A stretch of 64,000 nucleotides of DNA from Octopus vulgaris (Eukaryota): assembly GCA_951406725.2 (NCBI GenBank), contig OX597820.1:44640001-44704000 (forward strand), given 5' to 3'. A model generated the notes under the pieces. That model saw nothing but the letters and a program-made list of their open reading frames with translations. It had not been told where the DNA came from and did no database searches. This document shows positions 3,550 to 62,788 of the stretch, in pieces; position 1 is the stretch's first letter; every line of letters starts with the position of its first letter. A program made the translations under genes and the position numbers.

Positions 3550-4540
3550 GTTAGTTCATTTATTTTTTTACCAAATATTACAGGTCTTTTAGAATTCCTC
3601 CTGGCTAACTGATGTGGTATACTACCAGTCGACTAAATTAGGTCTTGATTATTTATATTCCATCAATGAAACTCCACCACGTTCAAGACCAAGACATGTT
3701 ATTAACTTTCGCTCAATTAGTTGTAAATAGGCACCATGAATAAGTTCAAGCTCGACTCAAGAATCAGCAGCAGTACAAAATGATATTATCAACTTTTTAG
3801 CATTCAGAGTCTTCTGTCGAATGTATTGTTTTGGGATTAATTATGCATTGTGCACTTGAGCAGGACACTTTATTTCATGTTGCTCCAGTCCACTCAGCTG
3901 GCAAAAGTGAGTAGTACCAGTAATATGAAGAGCCAGCCTTGTCGCATTCTGTGTCACTCTGAATCTCTCTGAGAACTACACTAAGGGTATGCATGTATAT
4001 GGAGTGCTCAGCCAGTTTCATTTTAATCTCATGAGCAGGCTGCTTCATTGATCAGATCAACTGGAACCCTCATCGTCATAACCAACAAGTATAGGGTAGA
4101 TGGCTGGGGCCAGGTCTGGCCAGTTTGAACATAAAACAGGTAACATTTTTTGGCCAGTTTGAGTGCTAAATGGTTAAGTCCTTTCTTAGCCAAGTTCAAA
4201 TTCTTCCATGAGTACAGCTTGATTTTGCTAAGATTTTGCTAGACTGATTTGTCCTATGGGGTATTGTTCTCAGTTCAGTGGAGAATGTTGGTGGGTAGTT
4301 TGCATTTAAGTAAGCTAGAACTGATGTGAGCTTCTACTTTTTCTGGATTGAATAGTAATTGTTACTATTCTGTCTTAAATTTCCTTGTGTTGGTCTCTCT
4401 TTGTGTTTCTACACTAGTTCACACACTTATCTTTAGCCCAGTTTTAGCTGATGTTTAGAAGAAAACCAAAAGTGTTTATTGTAATACAAACACTAGAAAG
4501 GTACTCTTCCTAAGTTTGATGCGTTCAACATACATATACA

Positions 4541-5672
4541 ACTCTGTGCCACACAAAAGGCTTATGGTGAAACTCTCTGCAATGGGTGTGGGGGATGACC
4601 TTTTTAACTGGTTGAAATCCTTCATCCTCAGCCGAAAGGAGGTAGTCACAGTTCTAGGACAGCACTCTACACCATATGAGATGTCATCGGGTGTACCACA
4701 GGGATCTGTCCTTGGTCCCCTCTTGTTTGTGGCATACATTAATGACATAGATGCCAATTTAAAGAATGCCACAGTATTGAAATATGCAGACGACATCAAG
4801 CTGTACCTTGAAATCAAGAGGACTGATCCTGATGTCTACAACTCTTTCCTGCAATCAGACCTAGACACAATGCAGCAATGGATCACAGACTGGCAACTGA
4901 AACTGGCTGTGGACAAGTGTACCACCATGCATTTTGGGAGAAAAAACCCTGCGTCCACATACTCCCTCCACAACACTGATATCAAGAAATCCTCTTGCGA
5001 GCGTGACCTAGGCATCACTGTCAGCAGTGATTTGCGTTGGACAAAGCATATCTCTAAAATTGTCAAGAAGGCCGAGGGAGTCTTGGCATCACTCAGCAAG
5101 ACTTTTGTTAGCCGCTCTCCAGCCATCTATCTAAAACTGTATACAGCTATGGTACGACCACACTTGGAATTCGCATCATCAGTTTGGAACCCCTATCTTG
5201 CTCAGAACATTGACCTCCTGGAATCTGTCCAGAGACGTGCAACCAAACGCATACCCTCCATCAGACACCTACCATATTCTGAGCGCCTTGTTTCCCTGGG
5301 CATGGATTCATTGAAGCTCCGGCGTCTGGCGACGGACTTGGTAAACACCCACAAAGTTATCAACCACCTCACCAACAACAACACTGAACACCTTTTTGAT
5401 CTCCATGTGTCTAACACACGTGGACATGCCTACAAAGTCAGAAAACAACACAGCTCCCATGACTTTCGGAAACATTTTTTCACGCTCAGAGTTGCTGAAG
5501 CATGGAATAAACTGCCTGCGTCAGTTGTTGACTGCCATGACACTGCATCCTTTAAGGCCCTCATGCTTTCCGAAATCCGCCGAAACTACACCTGATTATA
5601 TATACACTTTAGATGAGTTGTAGTGCACCTGAGCACTGTACACAATTATTATTATTATTATTATTATTATTA
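4541..5672 (+). mobile_element. 5'-truncated CR1-clade LINE (RT C-terminal half, uninterrupted) with (ATT)n tail
   Basis: ORF 4516-5595 has SGVPQGSVLGP, YADD, ERDLGI and the CR1 C-terminus TRGH..FF..RV...WN.LP. Short 3' UTR, then (ATT)n. Confidence 0.93.
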
Positions 5673-11135: not shown

Positions 11136-11619
11136 TATAGAGAAAAATCAGGTATCTTCTGACTTTGACATGGTGGTGCATGATCACTAATGCCTGTTGA
11201 CATGACACATGAAGAAAGAGAATGTGTTCATAGAAGAATTGACAGTGTCCAGCAAAATACTTTTTTTTTTTTTTGTATTTTGGCTTATGTTCCTTTACAT
11301 CCTGTGCTCAAATCACACCCACGCCAAGTTTGCCTTTCTACTTTCTGAGGTCAATAAAACAAGTGCTAATCAAACACTGGGGTTTACTATAATCAATTAT
11401 GCCTTTGAAAGATCTTAGATGGCAGAAACCAGTGAAAGAATAAAATAGTTGGATGGACTAGGTGCTTTGCTCATTTAGTCTCATGCCTTATACAGTCCAA
11501 ATTAGATATCATTTTGCTTTTCATACCTTTTGGGCCGACTATATATATATGTATATATAACAATATAAATAAAATATATATGCATATATACATACATACA
11601 TACATATATATGTATATAT

Positions 11620-12160
11620 GTGTACAGGACGTCACAAAACATAAACAACATGAAACACAAAAATAGATTTGGGTATGCTAACAACGAGAGAAACAAATGG
11701 AAAACAAGACAAGAAGATAAAGAACAACCCTTCATCAGTTGTCAGCTGTCTATCTACTCCTCATTTTGAGCATTGAACGACAATATGAGATTTTGAGAGG
11801 TAGTTGCTCCCGCGAACCATAATTAAATTTGGGATTTGCAGAGGGTTAAAGTTGGAAACAAAAACAGGACAGTGGAGACATACAATAAACCAAATGAAAA
11901 CAAACATGCAGGGCCATTAGGCCAGACAAGGTAAAAGTAGCAAACACTGGAGAAATATTGTCTTTGACAAGAGAAAAGATAGAAGAGGAGACAGATAAGA
12001 ATGCTTGTGGTCTGTTTGACAGACTGACGGAAAAGAAAGATGGACGATGGTCATGTGTGAGCAACAAGAGAGAGTAAAAGAGAAAGAGGGTGAGAGAGAG
12101 AGATAGAAAACAGTGAAGTGGGGAAAACAATTAGAGAAAGGATGAGAGAAAATAGTACAG
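11620..12160 (-). mobile_element. Unclassified non-autonomous element with structured HHR-like core
   Basis: Pyrimidine-rich 5' part, structured core at 11721-11810, GT-rich tail into a TA-rich microsatellite. Its terminal 20 bp recur near 12700. Confidence 0.5.
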
Positions 12161-12224
12161 AGTAGAGTTGCATCAAAATTATTTAGATAAGCTTACTTGG
12201 AAATGGATGCATGGTTTTCAATCA

Positions 12225-12607
12225 TCTCTATATATATAAACGGCAGTTTGTCTGTGCGTGTTTCTGTGTGTCTGTTTGCTTGTACCCTCACCCTGACCAC
12301 GGCTTTCAACCGATTCTGATGAAACTTGACACACACATAGCCCAATGTCATAATTCAAAACTAACGCAGCGAAAATTTTGAAAAGTTCACCCAGTTCTGA
12401 AAAATATCGCTAAATTCGACATGGGGTCGAGAATCCGAAACACAAACCACAAACTGTCTAGGGGACGCAACTCCACCTTTTTTAACTCTCAAAAAAATTT
12501 ACCATCATTTTTTTCCATTTTTTTGCTATTTTTTGGCTATAACTCTCTACAAATGCTTTATAGTTATTTCCCTTACAAACCTGAGCAACGCCGGGCGATA
12601 CTGCTAG
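12225..12607 (+). mobile_element. Non-autonomous Helitron
   Basis: A|TC start, GC-rich subterminal hairpin, CTAG|T end, no TSD. Confidence 0.8.
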
Positions 12608-13423
12608 TATAATAATATAAGTAAAATATATATATACTTATATGCATATATCCATACATATACATGTATATATATATATATATATATATGCATATATAGG
12701 TACAGGATGTCACAAAAATCATCTCTACTAAAAAAAATTTGACCATTCATAACATTTTATAAATTCTTGTTTAAGAGATCAGATTGCACAGTCAGTAGAG
12801 TGACGAACAAAATGCATTGCGATATTTAATTATAGTTGTTTTCAGTTTTAACTTTGCTGTACCCTTCATCATATCCTACTATTCTTGTCCTCCAAATTTC
12901 TGGACTTGTAGCTATGTTAGAAATTCTTTTTGTTTTCATGATGATGATGATGATGATGGAAGCATTGACAGAAGAATCAGTAAAGTATTAAACAAAATGC
13001 TTTGCTGTATTTCATTACATTTCTTTACATTCTGAGTTCAAATCTTGCTGGTATCGTTTTTTTGCTTTCAACATCTCAGAGTTGATATAATAAGTACCAG
13101 TTAAATATTTAGTCCTCTCTTGACATAAATGACTCTCATTCCCTCTTCTCCAAAACATCTGGTCTTGTCTCTATCTCAGTAATAAGTTTTTCAACTCTCT
13201 TATATGCACGAGTATCTGTCATATGGTAGAAGTTTTGCATTCATCCCTTATATACATCTAACTCCCTTCACCCCATGTTTATTTCATATCCACTTCATTC
13301 ACCTCCCATCATTCTCCCTAGCTCTCTGTATTCACTCACTCTTAAGTGGCAGGCAATGTTACAATGTTACCCAGAAAAAGTTACAACTTGGTTAATTTTA
13401 AATGATGCTTCTTTTGTTTACAG

Positions 13424-23195: not shown

Positions 23196-23212
23196 GGATG
23201 TGCTATTCCACA

Positions 23213-23310
23213 CCCATACTGACAATCCAATAATACCATTCCACATATACAAAAACAGCCATACCAACCATCCAACATACCTCCATCATCAGCTGCCCCA
23301 CAGCTATCAT
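23213..23310 (+). mobile_element. Possible decayed Penelope-like RT fragment
   Basis: Reads PY*QSNNTIPHIQK, frameshift, then NHPTYLHHQLPTAI. Resembles the PYRKPN..YI...SNHP....LP..I thumb motif of Penelope-like RTs. Confidence 0.4.
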
Positions 23311-24279
23311 TATGGTTTTGACACCTGGACAGTACCGTTCAATCCAGCAGTGTCAACAGCACTAAAATAAGTGTTGTTTGGGAACAAACAAACCAAAGAA
23401 ACCACAACTTTCAAACACATTTATGCTATGTACAACTGTAATGGTAAATAAATTCAATAAGTATATATGTATAAAACACACCCACACTTATCTTATGTCT
23501 GCTTTCTCTGCTTACATAGGTTGGATATGTCATCACAGTTCAAGTCAGTTGATATAAAGAGCTGGCAGAATCGTTAGCACTCCGGGCGAAATGCATAGCC
23601 GTATTTCGTCTGCCACTACGTTCTGAGTTCAAATTCCGCCGAGGTCAACTTTGCCTTTCATCCTTTCAGGGTCGATAAATAAAGTACCAGTTTCGCACTG
23701 GGATCGATGTAATCGACTTAATCCGTTTGTCTGTCCTTGTTTAGCCCCTTGTGGGCAGTAAAGAAATATAATGAGCTTATTGTATACAGTGGTCAAATGC
23801 ATGACTTGTTGGAAATGGTTAAAAGAGAGACAGAAACCAGACATATCAGTCAAGTGAATAAAGAATGATAGCAATAGAAGCTAGAAATATATGTGTAGTA
23901 CACAGAATGAAGCACAAAAGTAGGGAAAATGGAACATTAAAAAGAGTCATAAAGTATAAGGGTGCACATAAGGTATAGATCTGGTGAATTTCAAGGAAGC
24001 ATGGAATTTTTGAAGGATACAGTGTCCTGACAGTTAACAATGGATTGTTCATCTTCTCTTTCAAAATTACTTACAACTGCTTCTGAGAATAATGGTGTAA
24101 AGTTTTAAACAGCTATCATGGCTCTACAACACAATCATCATCGTCCGTTTTCCCATGCTAGCATGGGTTGGACGGTTTGACTGAGAACTGGTAAGCTGGG
24201 GAGCTACACCAGGTTCCAATCTGGTTTAAACCCATAATCTAAAATCAAGTCTCTTATCATATACATACAGTTCTGAAAT

Positions 24280-24532: not shown

Positions 24533-25662
24533 GTAACTTCATTCTTCAGTAGAATGCATGGATTGAAATTTAAATCATATTGTCTTGCTATGACACTGTT
24601 TTCTCTATTCTTATGCCCTAATTTTCAGATATTATATTCACACACACAAGCCATACATACATATATCTATATCTACTTATGATGCAATGAGCAAAAACAA
24701 GATGAAATGAATGAGAGGGAAACGTTTAAACAAAGGTGGTATTAGTATAATGCTTGAGATGAAAGAAAAGAGTCTTTGACGTTTTGAACGCTAGTCCTTC
24801 ATCAGAAGAAAGGAAAGAAAGGTGGAGAAAGTGGTGAATAGAAAAAATTCGGGACTAGGTAAGAATGAGTTTCTATAGGGAGGTGTGTGGAAGAAAGAAG
24901 AGGTGGGTAGTAAGCAAGTTTTGGAGGGTATCCATGTATAGAGGAGGCATAGGGGAGGTGTACAAGTGTGAAAGGAGGGTTGATTAGTTGTGGATGTATT
25001 GTGTGAGAGAGGTAAAAGGCAAGATCGGAAAACCACTGAAGAAAACAGTATGGTTGGTATATCTACCTACCTATTCAGCTTCCTAGCATCCCATTAGATT
25101 GATAAAGTATTTATCCAAAGCGATAGATTGATAAAATTGTTAGAGCATTAGTTGGTAGTAATTTGCAGTATCTGTTCCAGTGATGGTTAACCAAGAGCAT
25201 TCAGACTCAATGGTAACATATAAGTACCTTGACTTAAGAATACATGAAATGACAGTGAAGGTAAATATTAGATACAGGCAGCAATTTTACCTGTGTATGT
25301 ATCATCATCTTCATTATTATCATTTGAATGTCCACTTTTCCATGGGTCATACAGAATTTGTTCAGGGAAATTTTTCTACAGCCAAATGCCCTTCCTGTTC
25401 CTAGGGAAGATTGGAAGTGAAAGGCACAGCTTGTATGACAGTGATGCTCACAGTTATTTTGTGATATCAAAACAAGGAGACAACCACCGACACGCACATA
25501 TGTGCAAACACACACACACATATATATATACACATATGACAAGCTTATTTCAGTCTGTCACCCAAATCAACTCACAAGACTTTCAACAACCAGGGGCTAT
25601 AGTTGAAGATACTTGCCTTTGTGATTGAGATACAAACTTAACCATGCAGTTGTACATGCATC

Positions 25663-25713: not shown

Positions 25714-28700
25714 TCATCATCATCGTTTAACGTCTGCTTTCCATGCTAGCATGGGTTGGACGGTTCAACTGGGGTCTGGCAAGCCCGAAGGCTGCACCAG
25801 GCCAGTCAGATCTGGCAGTGTTTCTACAGCTGGATGCCCTTCCTAACGCCAACCACTCCGAGAGTGTAGTGGGTGATTTTATGTGCCACCGACACAGGTG
25901 CCAGACGAGGCTGGCAGACAGCCACGCTCGGATGGTGTTTTTTATGTGCCACCGACACAGGTGCCAGACGAGGCTGGCAGACGGCCACGCTCGGATGGTG
26001 TTTTTTATGTGCCACCAACACAGGTGCCAGACGAGGCTGGCAGACGGCCACGCTCGGATGGTGTTTTCTTATGTGTCACCGGCACAGGTGCCAGACGAGG
26101 CTGGCGAACGGCCATGCTCGGATGGTGTTTGTTACGTGCCCTCAGCACGGAGGCCAGTCGATGCGGTACTGGCTACAGTCACGTTCAGATGGTTTTCTTA
26201 TGTGCCACCGGCACTGGTACCATAAAGGATACAAATTCCATTGATGTACATCTATTTTGATTTGGTTTTGATTTTGATTTTCACTTGCCTCAACAGGTCT
26301 TCTCAAGTGTCACAATAAGGAAGGTATGCACAGGTGGACTGACTACGTCCCAGGTAGGGGCCACGGGATATGGCTTCACTAGTCTTGCCGGATCTTCTCA
26401 CGCACAGCATACTTCCATAGGTCTCGGTCTCTAGTCATTTCCATGGTGAGACCTAACGTCCGAAGGTCGTGCTTCACCACCTCGTCCCAGGTTTTCCTGG
26501 GTCTACCTCTTCCACGGGTTCCCTCAACTGCTAGGGATTGGCACTTTCTCACACACCTATCTTCATCCATTCTCGCCACATGACCATACCAGCGCAATCA
26601 TCTCTCTTGCACACCACAACTGATGCTTCTTAGGTACAACATTTCTCTCAAGGTACTAACGCTCTGTCGAGTAAGTACACTGACATTACACATCCATCGG
26701 AGCATACTGGCTTCATTCCTCACGAGCTTACGCATGTCCTCAGCAGTCACGGCCCATGTTTCACTGCCATGTAGCATAGCTGTTCGTACACATGTATCAT
26801 ACAGTCTGCCTTTTACTCTGAGCGAGAGGCCTTTAGTAACCAGCAGAGGTAAGAGCTCCCTAAACTTTGCCCAGGCTATTCTTATTCTAGCAGTTACACT
26901 TTCAGCGCACCCACCCCCACTACTGACTTGGTCACCTAGATAGCGGAAGCTATCAACTACTTCTAGTTTTTCCCCCGGAAAGTGACGGAAGTTGTTTTCT
27001 GCAGATTTTCGGAGGTCAATGCTCCCGAGCATCTGCCACATACAAAAACTATCTTCCCAGTTAGCCTACCTTTGACATTGCTGCACCTCTTATGTGTCCA
27101 TAGCTTACACTGGGTACATCTTATAGAGTTTCTACCTACACCTTTTCTACAGATCGAGTAGGGCCATCTTCCTGAGGATATTTGTGGATTGTCTACCTTT
27201 CTACTTATTAGTATTTTGGTTTTAGCTAGGTTGACTCTAAGGCCCCTCGATTCTAAACCCTCCTTCCACACCTGGAACTTCTGCTCCAGTTCTGATAGTG
27301 ACTCAGCAATTAGAGCGAGGTCGTCAGCATAGAGGAGCTCCCAAGGGCAGCCTGTCTTGAATTCCTCCACAATTGCCTGGAGGACTATGATAAATAGGAG
27401 GGGGCTGAGTACTGAACCCTGGTGGACCCCAACCTCTACTTTGAATTCTTCTGTGTACATGTTGCCAACCCTAACCTTACTTACGGCATCTCTGTACATG
27501 GCTTGCACAGCCCTCACCAGCCATTCATCTATCCCTAGTTTCCTCATTGACCACCAGATGAGGGATCGGGGGACCCTATCAAAGGCTTTCTCCATGTCAA
27601 CGAAAGCCAGGTACAGGGGCTTATCTTTGGCTAGGTATTTCTCCTGCAGCTGCCTTACCAGGAATATAGCATCAGTGGTGATTTTCCCTGGCACGAACCC
27701 AAACTGCATCTCATCTAAACTAACTCTCTCTAATTAGTTGGGCTATGACCCTCTCCGTAACCTTCATTACCTGATCCAACAGCTTGATACCTCTGTAATT
27801 ATTTGTATCCAGGGCATCACCTTTACCTTTGTAGCAGTTGACTAGTATGCTGCTACACCAGTCATTGGGTATGACTCCTTCGTGTATCACCTGGTTGACT
27901 ATACGGGTGACTAGGTTATAGCCGACACTGCCAGATATTTTGAGCATCTCTGCAGTAATTCCTGATGGGCCTGGGGCTTTCCCTGTCTTCATGCTTCTAA
28001 TTGCCTTAGCTACCACGGAACTATCAACTCGGATAGCTGGTCCCTCTGTTGGGTCAACATTCGGCAGACTCTCTTTATCCCATTCATTTTCTTTATTCAG
28101 CAACCTTTCATAGTGGCATCTCCAAACCTCTCTCTTTGCATCCTCATTTAGTGCAAGTGAACCATCATCCATGCGAACACACTTCTCTCCTACCACATCA
28201 CGATTCTCTCTCACACACTGTCTTGCAACACGAAATACCTCAAGTCTTTCATCCTCACGACGCAGAACATTGGCAAATTTTTTCTTATCCGCTTCCCCTC
28301 TGGCTAAATAGACCTGTCTCCTAGCTTCCCTTCTGGCTGTCTGATACAATTCCCTGCTACCACCGTTCTTCCAGTCCTTCCAAGCCTGTCTCTTTTGTCT
28401 AATAGCCCTGTCAACCACAGTGTTCCACCACCATGTTACTCTGGGTCGAGATGGTACTTTGCTCCATCCACAGATCTGGTCAGTGGCTGTCAGCAGATTG
28501 TCCCGTAGGAATCTCCAGTTGTCTTCCACGTTAAGTGAAGCTATATCCCTTTCTATTTCGTCAAAGGCCTCGAATAGTATGTCTCTAAATCTCTGTCCAT
28601 TTGCAGGATCTTTAAGCTTCCAGACCCTTCTCCTCCAAGCTGGTCTTCTTCTGGGCAACCATTTAGCTCTGATCCTGAAGTCGCTAACCACTAATCTATG

Positions 28701-29170
28701 TTGGGGAGTACATTCTTCGCCTGGAAAGGTTTTGGCATTTATAATCAGCCCTCTTTCCCTTTTTCTGGCAAGGATGTAGTCAATCTGGTTGGTGTGTCTG
28801 CCAGAACGGTAGGTGACTAGGTGCGAGGTGGGTTTCCTGAAGTTGGTATTGCAGACCATAAGGTCATTTGCATCGCAGAACTCCAGCAGCCTGGTTCCCT
28901 CCTCATTACGAGAGCCAAAACCGTAGCCTCCATGGACGCCATGGAAGCCCCCGACATGTCGTCCAACATGTCCATTGAAATCACCTGCCACGAAGAGAAG
29001 GTCACTGTCATTTGTCAATGAGGTAGTCCGCAATAGGGTGTCATAGAATTGGTCTTTTTGTCCTTCTGGTAGCCCTGGTTGAGGGGCGTATGCCGAGATG
29101 ATGGTAGCTGTCCTATGGTGAAGGACTAATCTAATTTTAATTACTCTGTCACTTACTCTGACTACCTCAA
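25710..29170 (-). mobile_element. Near-complete RTE LINE (APE + RT), 5'-truncated, three frameshifts
   Basis: SAYAPQ, GDFNGHVG and QIDYIL (APE); QFGF, DMEKAFD, GVHQGS and YADD (RT); LRWYGH. Frameshifts near 27715, 26975 and 26598. 3' UTR with 63-bp repeats and a (GAT)n tail. Confidence 0.96.
25883..26215. repeat. 63-bp tandem repeat inside RTE 3' UTR
   Basis: Unit starts at 25883, 25946, 26009 and 26073, followed by diverged units. Confidence 0.9.
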
Positions 29171-30205
29171 TTCACCCACCTTTGTACAAAATAAAGCTGT
29201 ATAGGATTGTCTGTCTTTAGATTTGAATGTGTTGGAATTGATTTAATATAAATCAACCTAATGCACATACCTGCTATGCCAAAGAATACTAGGATACTTA
29301 TCCAGTAGAAATACATGTTGGAATGGAATGGAATATGAAGAAAATAAGTTATTAAATAAATTTTGAAAATGTATAAATTCTCCATTCTTCATTCATCATC
29401 ATCATCATCGTTTAGCGTCCGTTTTCCATGCTAGCATGGGTTGGACGGTTCAACTGGGGTCTGTGAAGCCGGAAGGCTTCATCAGGCCCAGTCAGATCTG
29501 GCAGTGTTTCTACGGCTGGATGCCCTTCCTAACGCCAACCACTCCATGAGTGTAGTGGGTGCTTTTTACGTGCCACCCGCACAGGTGCCAGACAGAGCTG
29601 GCAAAGGGCCACGAACAGATGGTGCTTTTTATGTGCCACCGACACGGGGTCCAGGCGAATATATATATATATATATATAATGTGGCACATTGCTGTACTC
29701 GAGAAGACCTCCCATCACAACAGAATTGAGGTCCTAAAACCAAGTTGTCTTATAAAAAGCACCTAGTACACTATAAAGTGGTTAGCATTAGGAAGGGCAT
29801 CCAACCATAGAAACTATGTCAAAGCAGACTATGGAACCTGTTGTGGCTCCTGGCCTTGCCAATTCCTGCCAAGCTGTCCAACCCATGCCACATGGAAAAT
29901 GGACGTTAAATGTTGATGATATGTATACACACACACACTACACTATATTACATTACATAGTGAAGGAAAGATCAGCCATATTTTTGTATGTGGTATATTT
30001 ATTCACTGACATTTCTTTATGCATAAATCTAATGCTGTTGAATATTGAACACCTGAATAAAACGTTTCTCTCAAAATCCATCTGTTTACTTAAAATTATA
30101 GAACACTAATCACCTTGATGATAATGATATGGATGATGTCACAGTGTGTTGCTACCCACATGAGAACTCAGATAAATAATCTTTCTCTCCATTTCTATTC
30201 TTCAG

Positions 30206-35438: not shown

Positions 35439-35478
<40 letters not shown>

Positions 35479-35484
<6 letters not shown>

Positions 35485-35626
35485 TTTATAGAAGGAGCTT
35501 CTACAGGACTAGAACTGTTTCATTCAAATGAAATCATCAGGAAGCTGAAAAAATCAGGGGCTTCCTGATGATTTCATTTGAATGAAACAGTTCTAGTCCT
35601 GTAGAAGCTCCTTCTGTAAAATAAAT
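35479..35626. repeat. 67-bp inverted repeat (1 mismatch, 14-nt spacer)
   Basis: 35479-35545 is the reverse complement of 35560-35626. Confidence 0.97.
35557..35611 (+). ncRNA. Type I hammerhead ribozyme motif (mirror copy on - strand at about 35496-35546)
   Basis: Stem I GGGGCTTC/GAAGCTCC, core CTGATGA (35565-35571), stem II TTC/GAA, GAAA (35584-35587), stem III ACAG/CTGT, predicted cleavage triplet GTA ending at 35603. Confidence 0.7.
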
Positions 35627-35707
35627 TAATTTACTCTGCTATGTATTGAGTACCTTATTTACTGTGGTTAACCCCGACTCAACCCGGGACCTACATATAT
35701 ATATATA

Positions 35708-36162
35708 CTAGCAGCATAGCCCGGCGTTGCCCGTGTATGTAAGAGCCCCTAGTAGGCAACGACTAATCCCAATCTAGTCCTTTCCCTCTAGGGAACGAAG
35801 GCGCATGTGTAGGTTGCAATGTCTTCTCTTCACTCAAATACTTCTGTGTATACGATGTTCCTAGCTGTCCCTTTGGGCGAAAACATGAAAACATCATTGT
35901 GCCTCCCAACGCGTGAACAGCCCACGTACAGCCCAGAAAATGTGTTGCATATGAAAAGCTTAAATTCTCGACCCCATGTCGAATTTATGGATTTTTTCAG
36001 AACTGGGGGAACTTTTCAAAATTTTCACTCTGTTAGTTTTGAATTATGACATTGGGCTATGTGTGTGTCAAGTTTCATCAGAATCAGTTGAAAGCCATGG
36101 TCAGGGTGAGGGTACAACCTGACAGACACACAGACAGACAAACTGCTGTTTATATAGAGAGA
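35708..36162 (-). mobile_element. Non-autonomous Helitron
   Basis: A|TC start, hairpin and CTAG|T end. Its 5' part is shared with 12225-12607. Confidence 0.8.
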
Positions 36163-36429
36163 TATATATATGTGGGGAGAGAGAGAGAGAGAGATGCATA
36201 CATATATATAAATAGTTAAGATTAAAGAATTCCCTTTTTTTTTTTTTAGCTTCAACAACTTACTACAAATATTGAGTTTTTTTTCCTTCATGATCTTCAG
36301 CAGGATGTGTTTTTATATGCACGGTCCATTGAACCAGTACAAATAGCAACCAAATCTCCCTCAAATCTTACGGAAGGTTGACATGGGCTAAATAATAAGC
36401 ATCTGAGATTCTTGTTTTGAAAATTCCTG

Positions 36430-55865: not shown

Positions 55866-57434
55866 CAAATGTCATCATGGTGTTATCTACCGATGAGACA
55901 TGAAGCTGTAGCTAGGACACTATAATGAAATCCATTGGAAGGATAATTCCGAGGACAAAGAAATAAGAACCCACAGTATAGTAGAAGCCATAGCCACTCA
56001 TAATAAAAAGGAGTACTGATAGTATGTCCTAGTGAAGACCTCAATAAAATGTAAGCACAACAGACCTGATATAATGATTTGGGATAGAGAAGAGAAACTG
56101 TGCACAGTTGTGGAAATTAGCTGTCCAGTGGATGTTAACATAAAGCTGAAGATCAGTGAAAAAGAGAATACCTATGCTGAACTCATCATCATCATCATCA
56201 TCATCATAATATGCAGTTACTCTATCCAGATTACAAGTTCAGGTTTATACCTTTAATTATTGGGGCTCTGGGATATGTAACGCACTGCCTAAATACCAAT
56301 CTTGAGAAATTAGGCTTCTCAAAATCAGAAAGGAGAAAGTTAATTCAAAGACTACAGATCCAATCCATCACTGGAACTGTAAAAATCTGTAAAACTTTCC
56401 AGAAGTTTGTTATTTCAATATATATAAGCATGTCTAGATATGCAACTATATGCATGAGAATACATACATAAAGTAAAACATACAAATCTGCCATTAGGTT
56501 TCACTTCCACACACACCAGCTTATTTTAATTTGTCCTTAGTCGAAAGACACTTGTTGTTAATGTCCTGTTATTTGTATTTGTGTCTCTTTGTTCTGTTTT
56601 TTTTTTCTGTCCTTGTTTCGTATACATTCACTGCTTTTTTCCAAGGAATCTAGTGCTCTTAGCTTAGTTTTTCCTTGGGGCTGGCCAGATTGGAGCAATC
56701 TCAAGTATAACCAGCCAAAATTGCAAAGATAATCTGGAACTCAACTGAGGAAAGAAAACTCCGAATGACTCATCTTTGTTTTTTCTTGTCCCTTTTTTGC
56801 ATCATCTGTCTGGATGTTTTGTTGTCCCTTTTTTGCATCATTTAACTGTATGGTTGTTTTGCATGCTTGTCCTATTTTTTTTGTATTCCTTTTTATATAT
56901 ATGCAAACATACAAACAGAAATACCCTGTTGTTGATGTTGAAATTCCAATGAAAGAGCCTTAGATCTAGGTTAGAAACCAGCTCTTTCTCTATTGGTAAG
57001 AAATCTTGAAATAAAACTGAACAATCACATACATACATACATACATACAATCTTGAGAAATTAGGCTTCTCAAAACCAGAAAGGAGAAAGCTAATTCGAA
57101 GATTATAGATCCAGTCCATCACTGGAACTGTAAAATTCTGTAAAACTTTCCAGAAGTTTATCATTTAATTATTTATATGCATGTCTAGATATGCAACTAT
57201 ATGCATGAGAATACATACATTAAACAAAACATACAAATCTGCACATATACGTGCATGCATACATACATGCATACATATGAACGTACATACATACATACAT
57301 ACAAACAAACAAAAATACCCTGTTGTTGATGTTGAAATTCCAATGAAGGAGTCTTGGATCTAGGTTAGAAACCGGCTCTTTCTCTGTTGGCAAGAAATCT
57401 TGAAATAAAACTGAATAATGACATACATACATAC
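55866..57434 (+). mobile_element. R4/Dong-like LINE 3' fragment (restriction-like endonuclease) with duplicated 3' end
   Basis: YLPMRHE.VAR, KHNRPDIMIWD..VEISCP.D.N...K..EK...Y, and IPLIIGALG motifs; (CATA)n at both ends. Confidence 0.85.
56491..56902 (+). mobile_element. Unclassified element nested in the R4/Dong 3' UTR
   Basis: Present in the first copy of the duplicated LINE end and absent from the second. T-rich flanks, structured core, TA end. Confidence 0.6.
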
Positions 57435-57870: not shown

Positions 57871-58056
57871 GCAGCATTTATATTTTACATGCTGTGGACA
57901 CCATTGGATTGAATGGTACTAACCAAGAGTCGGAACCATAATTATATCCATTTGTGCAGCTGGGGCAACATTTATATTTTATATGCTGTAGACACCATTG
58001 GATTGAATGGTACTACCCGAGTGTTGGAACCATAATTATATCCATTTGTGCAGCTG
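57871..58056. repeat. 94-bp period tandem duplication
   Basis: 57871-57962 repeats at 57965-58056 with a few substitutions. Confidence 0.92.
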
Positions 58057-58696
58057 ATGATAGGAGTGCACATATGTTATGCTTGATTGTGAATTTCTTA
58101 TACCTTAGTCTTATTTTTCTGGATTGTCCTTCATTCTTGTAAAGTAGAAAATGTTTGTGGATTCATAGTGTGTGGCAATTACTTTAGTATTGTTTGGTTT
58201 TCTCCATAAGTAACCTAATCAGGTTTGAACAAAGCTTATATATTGGTGTCTAGTTTTGGGAGGCTCTATGGCATAAAATACAGATTATGGGATAAAGTAA
58301 AAATGAGTTATGTAATTGTATTTCATGTAAATATATGCATTAAACCTGTTGGTGTTTAAATCTACCTTTCTACCCTTGTAGAATGATCCTCGACAAGGCT
58401 CATTCTCATAGCTAACTTTCAACCCCAAAGGCACTAGCCTTGGTTGAAGGTGTTGGCATTTAAGTTTTCATCCATATGAGTACTACTCTGTAATATCTAC
58501 ATCAGGCTTACTTTGTGTTCTCTTGCACTATATCTTTTATCTTTTACTTGTTGCAGTCATTTGACTGTGGTCATTCTGGGGCACTGCCTTGAAGAATTTT
58601 ATTTGAATGAATTGATCCCAGTGCTTGGGTGGTTTTTTTTAAAGCTTGCTATACAAACATACACACACCTCCCCTCTTACACACATACACCTTCTA

Positions 58697-60358: not shown

Positions 60359-62788
60359 TATTCACACATAAACAGCAGAATTATTAGTAGTCGTTCAGCC
60401 AGTGCTATTTTTAAACACAATTTTTTAAAATTCAAAGAAAATCTCTTAATCCTTGTAATTGACAAGAAAAAAAAAAATTAATCATCAGTCACTGTAATTT
60501 ATTGGAAAAATTTAATTTCATTTTCTAGTGGAAATATAGCAATATGTATTTTTAATTTATATTGATTATTATGTAAAAAAAAAAACCCTCTCCAGTTTTG
60601 GTTATTGATTACAGCATAAAAAAACCAGTTTCCATGAATATAATATTTTCAATTTTGTATATAGTTTCAAGGTATTTGCATTTTATTTTACGATAATTCT
60701 CATATAGATAATGTAGAAATGTCGATCGTAAAAGCTGTTGACAAAGACATCTACAATGGTTTTAAGCACATGATTAGTTTTCATGTGTTATTCGATATTG
60801 TACAAGTCTTTTGACAGACACTACTTACTTATTGAAGTTCTTTGTCTTTTTGTGAAGTACGTCTTGAGCAGATCGGGCTGGGGAGAGCTTCCTTCTCCAA
60901 GTAAAAATTCATGGGAGATATTTGAACTTGGCAACCTGCTGGAATTCTCCTTGCTATCACCACCACCATTGTATTTCCTGTCGATACTGACTTTTAGATA
61001 TCCGATCTGAATATAAACTGAATCTATCTCATCAGTCTTGAGAGATGCCTTTTCCCCTGTTATTTTAAGGATTTGCAAAGGTGTTGCATTCAGTCCCTTC
61101 TCCTAAGACTTAACAAAAAAAAAAGTTAATTAGTATTCTTATACAGGCAAAATGGCTATGTGAATAAGGTATTGGACTACTGTCTCATAGTTTGTGAGTT
61201 TAAATCTGCTGCAAGTATTTTGCAGTACTTCTGGGCTGGATATTTTATTCTGTATGTCTCAAGCCAGACATAGGTACCAGATCATATGGGGATGTTAACT
61301 GATAGATTACAATTGATAGTGTTATCCAGAGGAAGATTAATTTCTCATTTGCTTTAGGCCGTGAAACTAAATACTGGTCCTCAGTGGGCTTTTTGAGTAT
61401 TAAGAGTCATTTCTTCTCAACAACTACCTTTGGTAATTCTTTAACATTAAGTAGAGTAAGCCATTGTATCTTTGTATCAGTGCCAAGATATGAATTGCTG
61501 ACACTTTTGGTAAGGATTTAATTGTTTTGGCCAGCTGCCAAGGCTAGTATGGTCACTGGATAGTTTGAACCATTGTAGGGTATGTACAAACGAATCACTT
61601 GACTTGTAAAAATCCAACACATTGATATAAAGTGTCACCCAAGTATGTTATATATATATTTAGTCTCATGCTCTATTCCAGCTAGATATTCAATTTGTAG
61701 CTTTCACCTTTGTCCCAAAACTTCTCCAATATTTTCCTTAAGCCTAGACTGGACTGGTTTTATAGTTGCTGGAACCTTGGACTAGTAGAATTTTGGAGCC
61801 CTTACAGTTATTTTATTTTTTAATTTTTTTTGTTTAATTTTCACAAGTAATACAATTTGTAAATGTTGGAATGAAGCGTTTATTACAATTTATTAAAAGT
61901 AAGAATAAAGTGCCTGTTCTATTTAGTATTTTTCTTCGAACATCCCAAATATGATGTGGTGTCGTTAAACATGTAATGTCCCAAGCAACTGCTCAAGTTA
62001 CCAGTACTTTCAGCCAAATCCTAGAAGCCTAGAATTTGGTTTTGTGTATTGTCATATTGTTACTGCTGGATGATACACTTATTTGGAGACCTCTTTGTCA
62101 GCTAGGCAAGATGAGGCAAGCAGGCAAATTTACAAATCTTTTTTAATGGAGTAGAACATTGCAATGACTATGGCTGTAAAATTTGAAGATATAATGTCTT
62201 GAATTTTGGCACAAGGCCAGTGATTTTAGTGGGAGGAAGTAAGTAGGTTATATTGACCCTAGTATTCAACTAGTACTTTAAGTTATTGACCCTGAAAGGA
62301 TGAGATTGTAAAAATTTGGGACAAATACTGCTAAGCATTTTTCCAACTCTCTAAAGATTCTGCAAGCTTGGTGCCTTGAGATTTTGAACACACAATAATA
62401 TGGCCACCAGTTGAGTGATTTACATTCATAGCCTTCTGTGTGGGATAGATCTCACTGTGGTTTCTACAAATTAGTGTTCCACCCACCACCTGGTACCTTT
62501 GGCGCATTTAGTACAGAGTTCACTGAAAGCATTCAGACCTAGTCTCCAGTTTGAGGATACTTCTCTCACTCTTACCAGTCTTAGAATGTGAAGGATCATG
62601 GGCACTGATTTCCCTCCTGACTAGAAGATAAAAGAAAAAAAAGGTGTAAATGACTGAATATACTCCAGATCAGACTGGTGGAGATCTTCCTTCTCAAAGT
62701 AACATTCATAAGAGGTTTTGAACTTGGTAACCTCCTGCAATTCTCCTCAAGTAGAATCAGTATTGTAGTGTGTGGTAAAGCTGGCCTT

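Follow-up and report, generated by a model that had tools for sequence, protein, structure and literature searches.

The repeat family represented at positions 11620-12222 (minus strand) of the analysed Octopus vulgaris DNA (contig OX597820.1; 'the window' denotes the whole stretch of 64,000 nt) was found, with good probability, to hold a complete hammerhead core in scrambled order, and the structural model predicts that its intact copies cleave themselves after the AUA triplet at 11786-11784. The full core assembles with a GAAA word at 11767-11764, in the non-circular order cleavage site (11785), GAAA (11767), CUGAUGA (11738). An earlier sequence-only reading had proposed a hammerhead-core RNA with GAAA ahead of CUGAUGA at this place; this was borne out, but with the true GAAA 27 nt downstream of the AAAA chosen there.

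Hammerheads cut behind H17 with G12 as the general base, and the products carry a cyclic phosphate and a 5'-OH. As this base is lost in the window copy (AAAA for GAAA at 11767-64), the copy is likely dead through G12A; the earlier reading of decay by CpG loss and of a probably inactive copy was upheld. In the family, G stands at 11767 in 166,975 of 181,106 units of depth in one DNA run (92%), in 91% and 90% in the other two, and in 318 of 369 RNA reads.

The site lies in a repeat with the following limits.

11620..12222, minus strand: decayed copy of a many-copy repeat of about 600 nt, from contig depth in 30/30 bins and 3/3 DNA runs; 5' limit approximate
11542..11619 and, beyond an inserted repeat, 12626..12697: (TA)n flanks of this copy

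Contigs from three DNA runs (with three organism labels) and one RNA run were aligned to 11618-12225 at 80% likeness. From the DNA runs 8,005, 6,731 and 9,123 contigs aligned and every bin was covered; this depth is not read as a copy number, and contigs by the thousands across all bins mark a many-copy repeat. Reads of the RNA run came from both strands without pile-up of ends, as from fragmented cDNA; 2,563 of 3,006 were less than 90% alike to the query and many derived from a GA microsatellite, and they are uninformative for expression or cleavage. A peptide of the window matches at 94% a protein assigned to Octopus vulgaris, which points to an octopus or a near relative as host. A second copy of 11640-12220 was not found within the 64-kb window, and an exact-pattern scan for the family core returned 0 loci in the metagenome, viral and prokaryote collections.

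The repeat is likely a decayed copy of an abundant octopus element, the 3' end of a Naiad-type Penelope-like retrotransposon, the family name being given by analogy. A Naiad ORF is marked by an N-terminal GIY-YIG, a CxC motif and a reverse transcriptase. Since the fragment contains no ORF (two frames cross it without a Pfam match), Naiad membership was judged on architecture, position and target, which together tip the balance in its favour. Pfam searches of 60 of the 117 window ORFs gave reverse transcriptase or endonuclease matches only at 4459, 26966 and 27723, none near the repeat; these mark remnants of LINE-type ORFs at 4459-5595 (+) and 26963-29171 (-), with Pfam RVT_1 and Exo_endo_phos_2. 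The TA-rich runs on both sides agree with insertion into (TA)n, a feature unspecific to Naiads. Aligned with the Naiad_Obim-type copy, the family core scored 28 against a shuffle maximum of 32, leaving only the architecture in common, and its words were absent from the supplement of PMC8557442, as far as a word search of the available part extends. A likeness of the repeat to the 5' region of Naiad_Ovul, seen by eye only, was set aside. Where the earlier note had assumed a non-autonomous element, a 5'-truncated autonomous one fits as well. A non-LTR retrozyme, made of tandem type I hammerhead units, was rejected for a single copy in the window that is not of type I.

Some further features surround the element. 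Its terminal 18 nt recur (17/18 identical) at 12698-12717, about 1,080 nt off and beside another TA run, perhaps as a PLE 'tail', perhaps as a very short copy left by truncation; no homology to the element was detected upstream of this duplicated end (12718 on; 35 against a shuffle maximum of 38). On the 5' side of the element, a separate repeat (12224-12623) has inserted at the TA run; a second copy of it lies at 35692-36165, and its termini presumably resemble those of non-autonomous Helitrons. At the 5' edge a short frame (12193-12222, minus strand) ends in ...SISK and a stop, loosely like the C-terminus of a Naiad reverse transcriptase.

The RNA at 11848-11725 (minus strand) follows the strand order P5a, P6 hairpin, IIa, P4a, IIIa, NUH, Ia, IIb, GAAA, IIIb, P4b, Ib, CUGAUGA, P5b. 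All its parts lie on the minus strand.

11842..11848: 5' strand of P5, the closing helix with 11731-11725; 7/7 pairs with window letters
11810..11841: P6 hairpin between P5 and P2, at the four-way junction; first 4/4 pairs, 8/12 overall, window letters
11805..11809: 5' strand of stem II, GAGCA, source of G10.1; 5/5 Watson-Crick with 11772-11768 (G10.1-C11.1)
11798..11803: 5' strand of P4, counterpart of a stem I-II interaction helix; 4/6 pairs with window letters
11784..11789: 5' strand of stem III, CUCAU, and H17 (A11784); 5/5 pairs with 11764-11760
11778..11783: 5' strand of stem I, UUGUCG; 6/6 with 11744-11739, one G-U being C-G in the majority
11760..11772: 3' strand of stem II (11772-68), GAAA core (11767-64) and 3' strand of stem III (11764-60)
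11746..11751: 3' strand of P4, AGACAG, from the helix pairing table
11725..11744: 3' strand of stem I (11744-39), CUGAUGA core (11738-32) and 3' strand of P5 (11731-25)

The cut is predicted between 11784 and 11783. A15.1 (11764) pairs with U16.1 (11785), and stems I, II and III adjoin the core with 6/6, 5/5 and 5/5 pairs, stem II by way of its upstream strand. Family majority letters, drawn from the 40 difference rows listed out of 171, restore G12, make stem I firmer, mend two mismatches of P4 and keep P5. With majority or loose-end letters at 11801 and 11800, P4 reaches 6/6, provided that 11746-51 is unchanged. In P5 the majority letters at 11847 (G) and 11726 (C) preserve the pairing in the form of G-C, which CpG decay on both sides could explain. 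P6 is the weakest helix, as its majority partner letters lie outside the rows listed, and it carries mismatches against the loose-end letters. The loose-end consensus over 11714-11742 retains CUGAUGA in 3/3 DNA runs. The lowest-energy fold of the window copy differs from the model (-24.3 kcal/mol, against -9.2 for a partial nested scaffold with pseudoknots unscored). One subfamily has, in the loop that connects P4 with stem III (11789-11800, minus strand), a perfect palindrome of 12 nt, which might serve for dimerisation. A type I or type III hammerhead with a downstream GAAA was rejected, as the letters of this copy contain no RAAA over the 118 nt that follow the core.

The strength of the pairing was assessed against shuffled sequence. 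With window letters, the four core helices reach 20.5 of 21 and the six helices 27 of 30 pairing points; neither score was reached in 5000 shuffles with the core words fixed (maxima 18.5 and 26), nor at 4696 sites in 300 shuffled windows (maxima 19 and 25.5). When the two RAAA sites near the core were combined with ten stem I candidates, only U11785 yielded both stems I and III in full. The six-helix descriptor was designed on the 11767 site and on Naiad_Ovul, which makes the score of the site itself post hoc; as it was built after that site had been seen, the fair test lies in the other sites it detects. Three further copies of the layout were recognised.

56634..56758, plus strand: six-helix layout in an unrelated repeat family; blind match with score 27.5, AUC triplet, AAAA for GAAA, CUGAGGA
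23200..23470, minus strand: 5'-truncated 3' end of Naiad_Obim/Ovul, layout at 23381-23283; consensus match by eye, helix table, score 22
57964..58063, plus strand: more decayed relative of the copy at 23292, GGAA for GAAA; alignment 106 against a shuffle maximum of 51

Among 35 sites scored in the window, the top one was that at 56745 (+), where all six helices were present (27.5): P2 6/6, P4 7/7, P3 5/5, P1 4/6 and, by eye, a P6 of 8 bp (56641-48 with 56671-78). The Naiad copy at 23292 (-) came fourth with 22, a value inside the null range, behind an apparent chance site at 60488 (22.5), and the decayed copy at 58054 (+) was missed by the descriptor. The layout occurs in the window in four copies of three families.

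About 210 nt upstream of the copy at 56745 lies the C-terminus of a non-LTR retrotransposon ORF (56253-56420, plus strand), relatives of which carry a zf-RVT domain and a restriction-like endonuclease motif; we take it to be R4/Dong-like from this motif. ORF end and RNA may belong to one element or to two nested ones, and on account of this ORF end with zf-RVT relatives the six-helix RNA may extend beyond Naiads. Elsewhere in the window, the words of a minimal Penelope type I hammerhead were noticed at 24780-24811 (24805, minus strand: CUGAUGA, short stem II, AAAA for GAAA, then CGUC; undetected by Rfam), and a long, near-perfect inverted repeat around 35550 (35477-35628) bears CTGATGA on each arm.

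By eye, 11 of the 54 Naiad consensus entries in the available part of the PMC8557442 supplement were found to share the six-helix strand order, with helix sequences that differ: Bfor (a ctenophore), 3_Chem, Amil, Aacu, Anas and 2_Movir (cnidarians), Obim, Ovul and Esco (cephalopods), and a further two identified by file position alone. The latter are likely Plae and EuTe, an acanthocephalan and a crustacean. Three Acropora entries are near-identical, as are two of Octopus, which leaves 8 independent cases among the 11. CUGANGA, GAAA, the A15.1-U16.1 pair and a non-G H17 were retained in all 11, while the helices vary: stem II, for example, reads GGCUCC/GGAGCC, GGCCCC/GGGGCC, GACGCC/GGCGUC or GACACC/GGUGUC, and stem I UAGGAU/AUCCUA, UCGA/UCGA, UUUUC/GAAAA or CUGCCC/GGGCAG. 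In most entries P6 fills the space from P5 to stem II and leaves 0-1 bases spare. Weak helices were stem I of Bfor (2 bp), P5 of Ovul and Obim (3 bp) and an imperfect stem II and P6 in Esco. P4 is nested outside stem III; the two are nearly continuous in two entries (about 15 bp), and in others this place is taken by bulges, a hairpin or a loop like a k-turn. A k-turn between P3 and P4 fits Naiad_Ovul by eye, but not the family at 11620-12222.

Within the same available part, inspection covered 57/62 CTGATGA, 21/23 CTGACGA, 21/25 CTGAGGA and 37/43 CTGAAGA places, words split between lines being missed. In this material the nematode entries have C-G-S order with a long stem II instead, the spider, ostracod and crab passages show a different wiring or no clear layout, and the six-helix layout was not observed at the ends of Omin, Adux, 1_Skow and 1_Movir. 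A spider Naiad has S-G-C order with an 8-bp stem I, a 10-bp stem III and stem II between blocks S and G. CUGANGA is absent from the 3' end of Naiad-1_Movir as given there, and a stretch of this end resembles a twister ribozyme. This twister-like end hints that Naiad 3' UTRs may swap ribozyme classes.

Four other explanations of the site were weighed. A real but non-cleaving fold, a hammerhead-derived signal for protein binding or reverse transcription at the element's 3' end, is considered unlikely. It would suit the position close to the 3' end in all families, the RNA without pile-up of ends and the strained geometry, and in an Anolis PLE the hammerhead required protein for cleavage and was dispensable for insertion (PMC11167929, in the passages at hand). 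It is opposed by the catalytic set of CUGANGA, GAAA, A15.1-U16.1 and non-G H17, which all 11 entries keep in full.

Quite improbable is an ordinary type SGC hammerhead, in which the bases after CUGAUGA would form stem II with those before GAAA and the upstream helices would be accessory. A two-pair stem II could arise in this family from A.C, G-U and G-C, and stems II of one and two pairs exist in natural hammerheads (PMC3088659, in part). The five bases before GAAA, however, pair 5/5 with GAGCA at 11809-05 and only 1.5/5 with the bases after CUGAUGA, the SGC score at this site, and the copies at 56745 and 23292 score 0 and 1.5. Nor was this pairing seen by eye in the Acropora, Movir-2, Chem-3 and both position-only entries, as available, where the upstream strand is the partner of IIb over 4-6 bp, and P5a that of the bases after CUGANGA.

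The type II hammerhead of the sequence-only reading is hardly tenable. All its words are present on the minus strand: GGAGCAA (11810-11804), CTC (11797-95), AAAA (11794-91), CTCATATTG (11789-81), CAAAATGAG (11768-60), GTA (11757-55), CAGCTG (11748-43), CTGATGA (11738-32) and TTGTTCT (11727-21). In window letters the outer flanks pair 7/7 (two G-U; p>0.9 in the 101-nt fold), CTC/GGG 3/3 and the long stem 8/9, and a CTCAT/ATGAG helix indeed forms stem III, with the core at its inner end. The family letter at 11726 (90-92%) breaks one A-U pair of these outer flanks as stem II, and the CAGCTG palindrome proved a product of decay, 11744 differing in 83-86% of the family depth. The derivation of AAAA from GAAA by CpG decay held for its first letter, G standing at 11794 in 66-76%; G also stands at 11791 (78-93%), giving GAAG. 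The majority letters at these two positions rest on a depth below 1% of that at the core, and the loose-end consensus behind 11789 (148, 111 and 169 contigs; 3/3 DNA runs) agrees with GAAG. GAAA is accordingly not restored in the family at 11794-91, and because stem I is lacking in copy and majority alike (0/5 pairs after GTA, a weakness already conceded in the note), the reading fails in its own register. Its descriptor scored 4.5/9, with stem I 0/3 in the best placement, below at least 8 of 30 sites scored. The topology differs as well: the cleavage site precedes GAAA, so that the order is non-circular S-G-C and not G-S-C. The proposed mobile cephalopod RNA family was confirmed as a many-copy repeat with a hammerhead core, but not as one of type II. 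Rfam (E<=10, whole window) gave no hammerhead match, only microsatellite noise, and the 101-nt fold is ordinary (z -1.44; 18/200 shuffles fold as well).

Chance pairing in a U-rich, decayed repeat can scarcely be credited: CTGATGA occurs 27 times in the window and ten stem I candidates lie near the core, but both shuffle tests and the recurrence across unrelated families and phyla speak against it.

For the six-helix hammerhead, self-cleavage would likely process transcripts of the Naiad-type retroelement, the cut, some 165 nt ahead of the element's 3' end, releasing unit RNA from read-through or tandem transcripts. Stems I and II would be held side by side through the short 5-nt link between Ia and IIb and through P4, instead of the usual loop-loop contact. 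G10.1 would be supplied by IIa from upstream, and a four-way junction of core, P5, P6 and stem II would bridge the A9-10.1 step. A dimer is proposed with less confidence: because P4 continues stem III almost unbroken in some families, two tandem copies may interact, the loop of one docking on the other's CUGAUGA block. A P4 abutting stem III would fit a monomer poorly in the model, and docking between tandem copies may solve that. Dimer action has a precedent in PLE hammerheads (PMC4209133, in part), and cleavage by the hammerhead of an Anolis PLE was dispensable for insertion in vitro and dependent on protein (PMC11167929, likewise).

Taken together, the balance of evidence leans towards a seventh wiring among natural hammerheads, not covered by the scheme of six permutations, with four core-adjoining strands in place of three blocks and a four-way junction at A9-10.1. 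It would be old in animals (ctenophore to molluscs) and would be the missing ribozyme of the Naiads, possibly present on an R4/Dong-like LINE as well, and possibly cleaving only when two copies dock, thereby sensing tandem transcripts. In the sources available, non-circularly permuted hammerheads had so far been confined to environmental RNA that has no known host, apart from a single weak case in bacteria. If the wiring is true, such a hammerhead is placed in animal genomes, in many-copy retroelements, and the assumption behind the enumeration of all possible hammerhead permutations is broken. The view that Naiads need no hammerhead of their own to spread would also be overturned, and their 'half-core' words would have an explanation. 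A large ribozyme set would then escape standard descriptors and Rfam, with four copies of three families in one 64-kb window. The replacement of the covalent A9-10.1 step by a helix junction, and action as monomer or dimer, become testable.

A literature search, with subscription papers outside its scope, gave no report of this fold in Naiads; the supplements of PMC10085705 may bear on novelty. The passages seen of that paper do not mention Naiads or octopus, the core variants listed in the available part of PMC3088659 include none of the six-helix kind, and PMC13725137 (in part) cites hammerhead variants 'with additional helices'.

With the type II hammerheads (Perreault et al. 2011, PMC3088659) the present RNA shares a GAAA that precedes CUGANGA, but the cleavage site lies between both words there (G-S-C) and ahead of both here. 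Canonical minimal type I hammerheads of Penelope elements (Cervera and de la Pena 2014, PMC4209133) likewise occupy the 3' end or pLTR of a PLE, with dimer action proposed; unlike the RNA described here they have C-G-S order, no pseudoknot and a short palindromic stem III. The 3' UTR location and the (TA)n targets are those of the Naiad 'HHR_core' and 'HHR_half_core' (Craig et al. 2021, PMC8557442), and one copy of Naiad_Obim/Ovul from that work lies within this window. According to its passages considered, canonical hammerheads are missing from Naiads; only words were flagged, as 'core' or 'half-core' in some of them, with no fold given.

Closest in layout is type SGC (HRIMA-1 and variants; Eckert et al. 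2023, PMC10085705, in the parts available). Both have the block order S-G-C, a short link between stems I and II (typically 3 nt in SGC, 5 here) and an extra helix joining the other strands of these stems (P4 here: 4/6, 6/6 with majority letters, 7/7 at 56745), and both pose the puzzle of an interaction helix abutting stem III. Type SGC that has stems I-III as well as the interaction helix cleaves in vitro; it is known only from metatranscriptomes, with none in genomes of known organisms. In contrast to SGC, the strands of stem II and of the interaction helix lie here on the 5' side of the cleavage site, the gap is bridged by P5 and P6, and the length is about 120 nt, against about 80 nt. CUGAnGA was assumed inseparable from its stem II strand in that work, with at most 2 nt at A9-10.1, and runs directly into this strand in SGC, whereas block C is broken here (1.5/5, against 5/5 with the upstream strand). 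This break at A9-10.1 is without tested precedent, and the six-helix RNA can be described, from its base pairing, as an SGC form reopened between A9 and 10.1.
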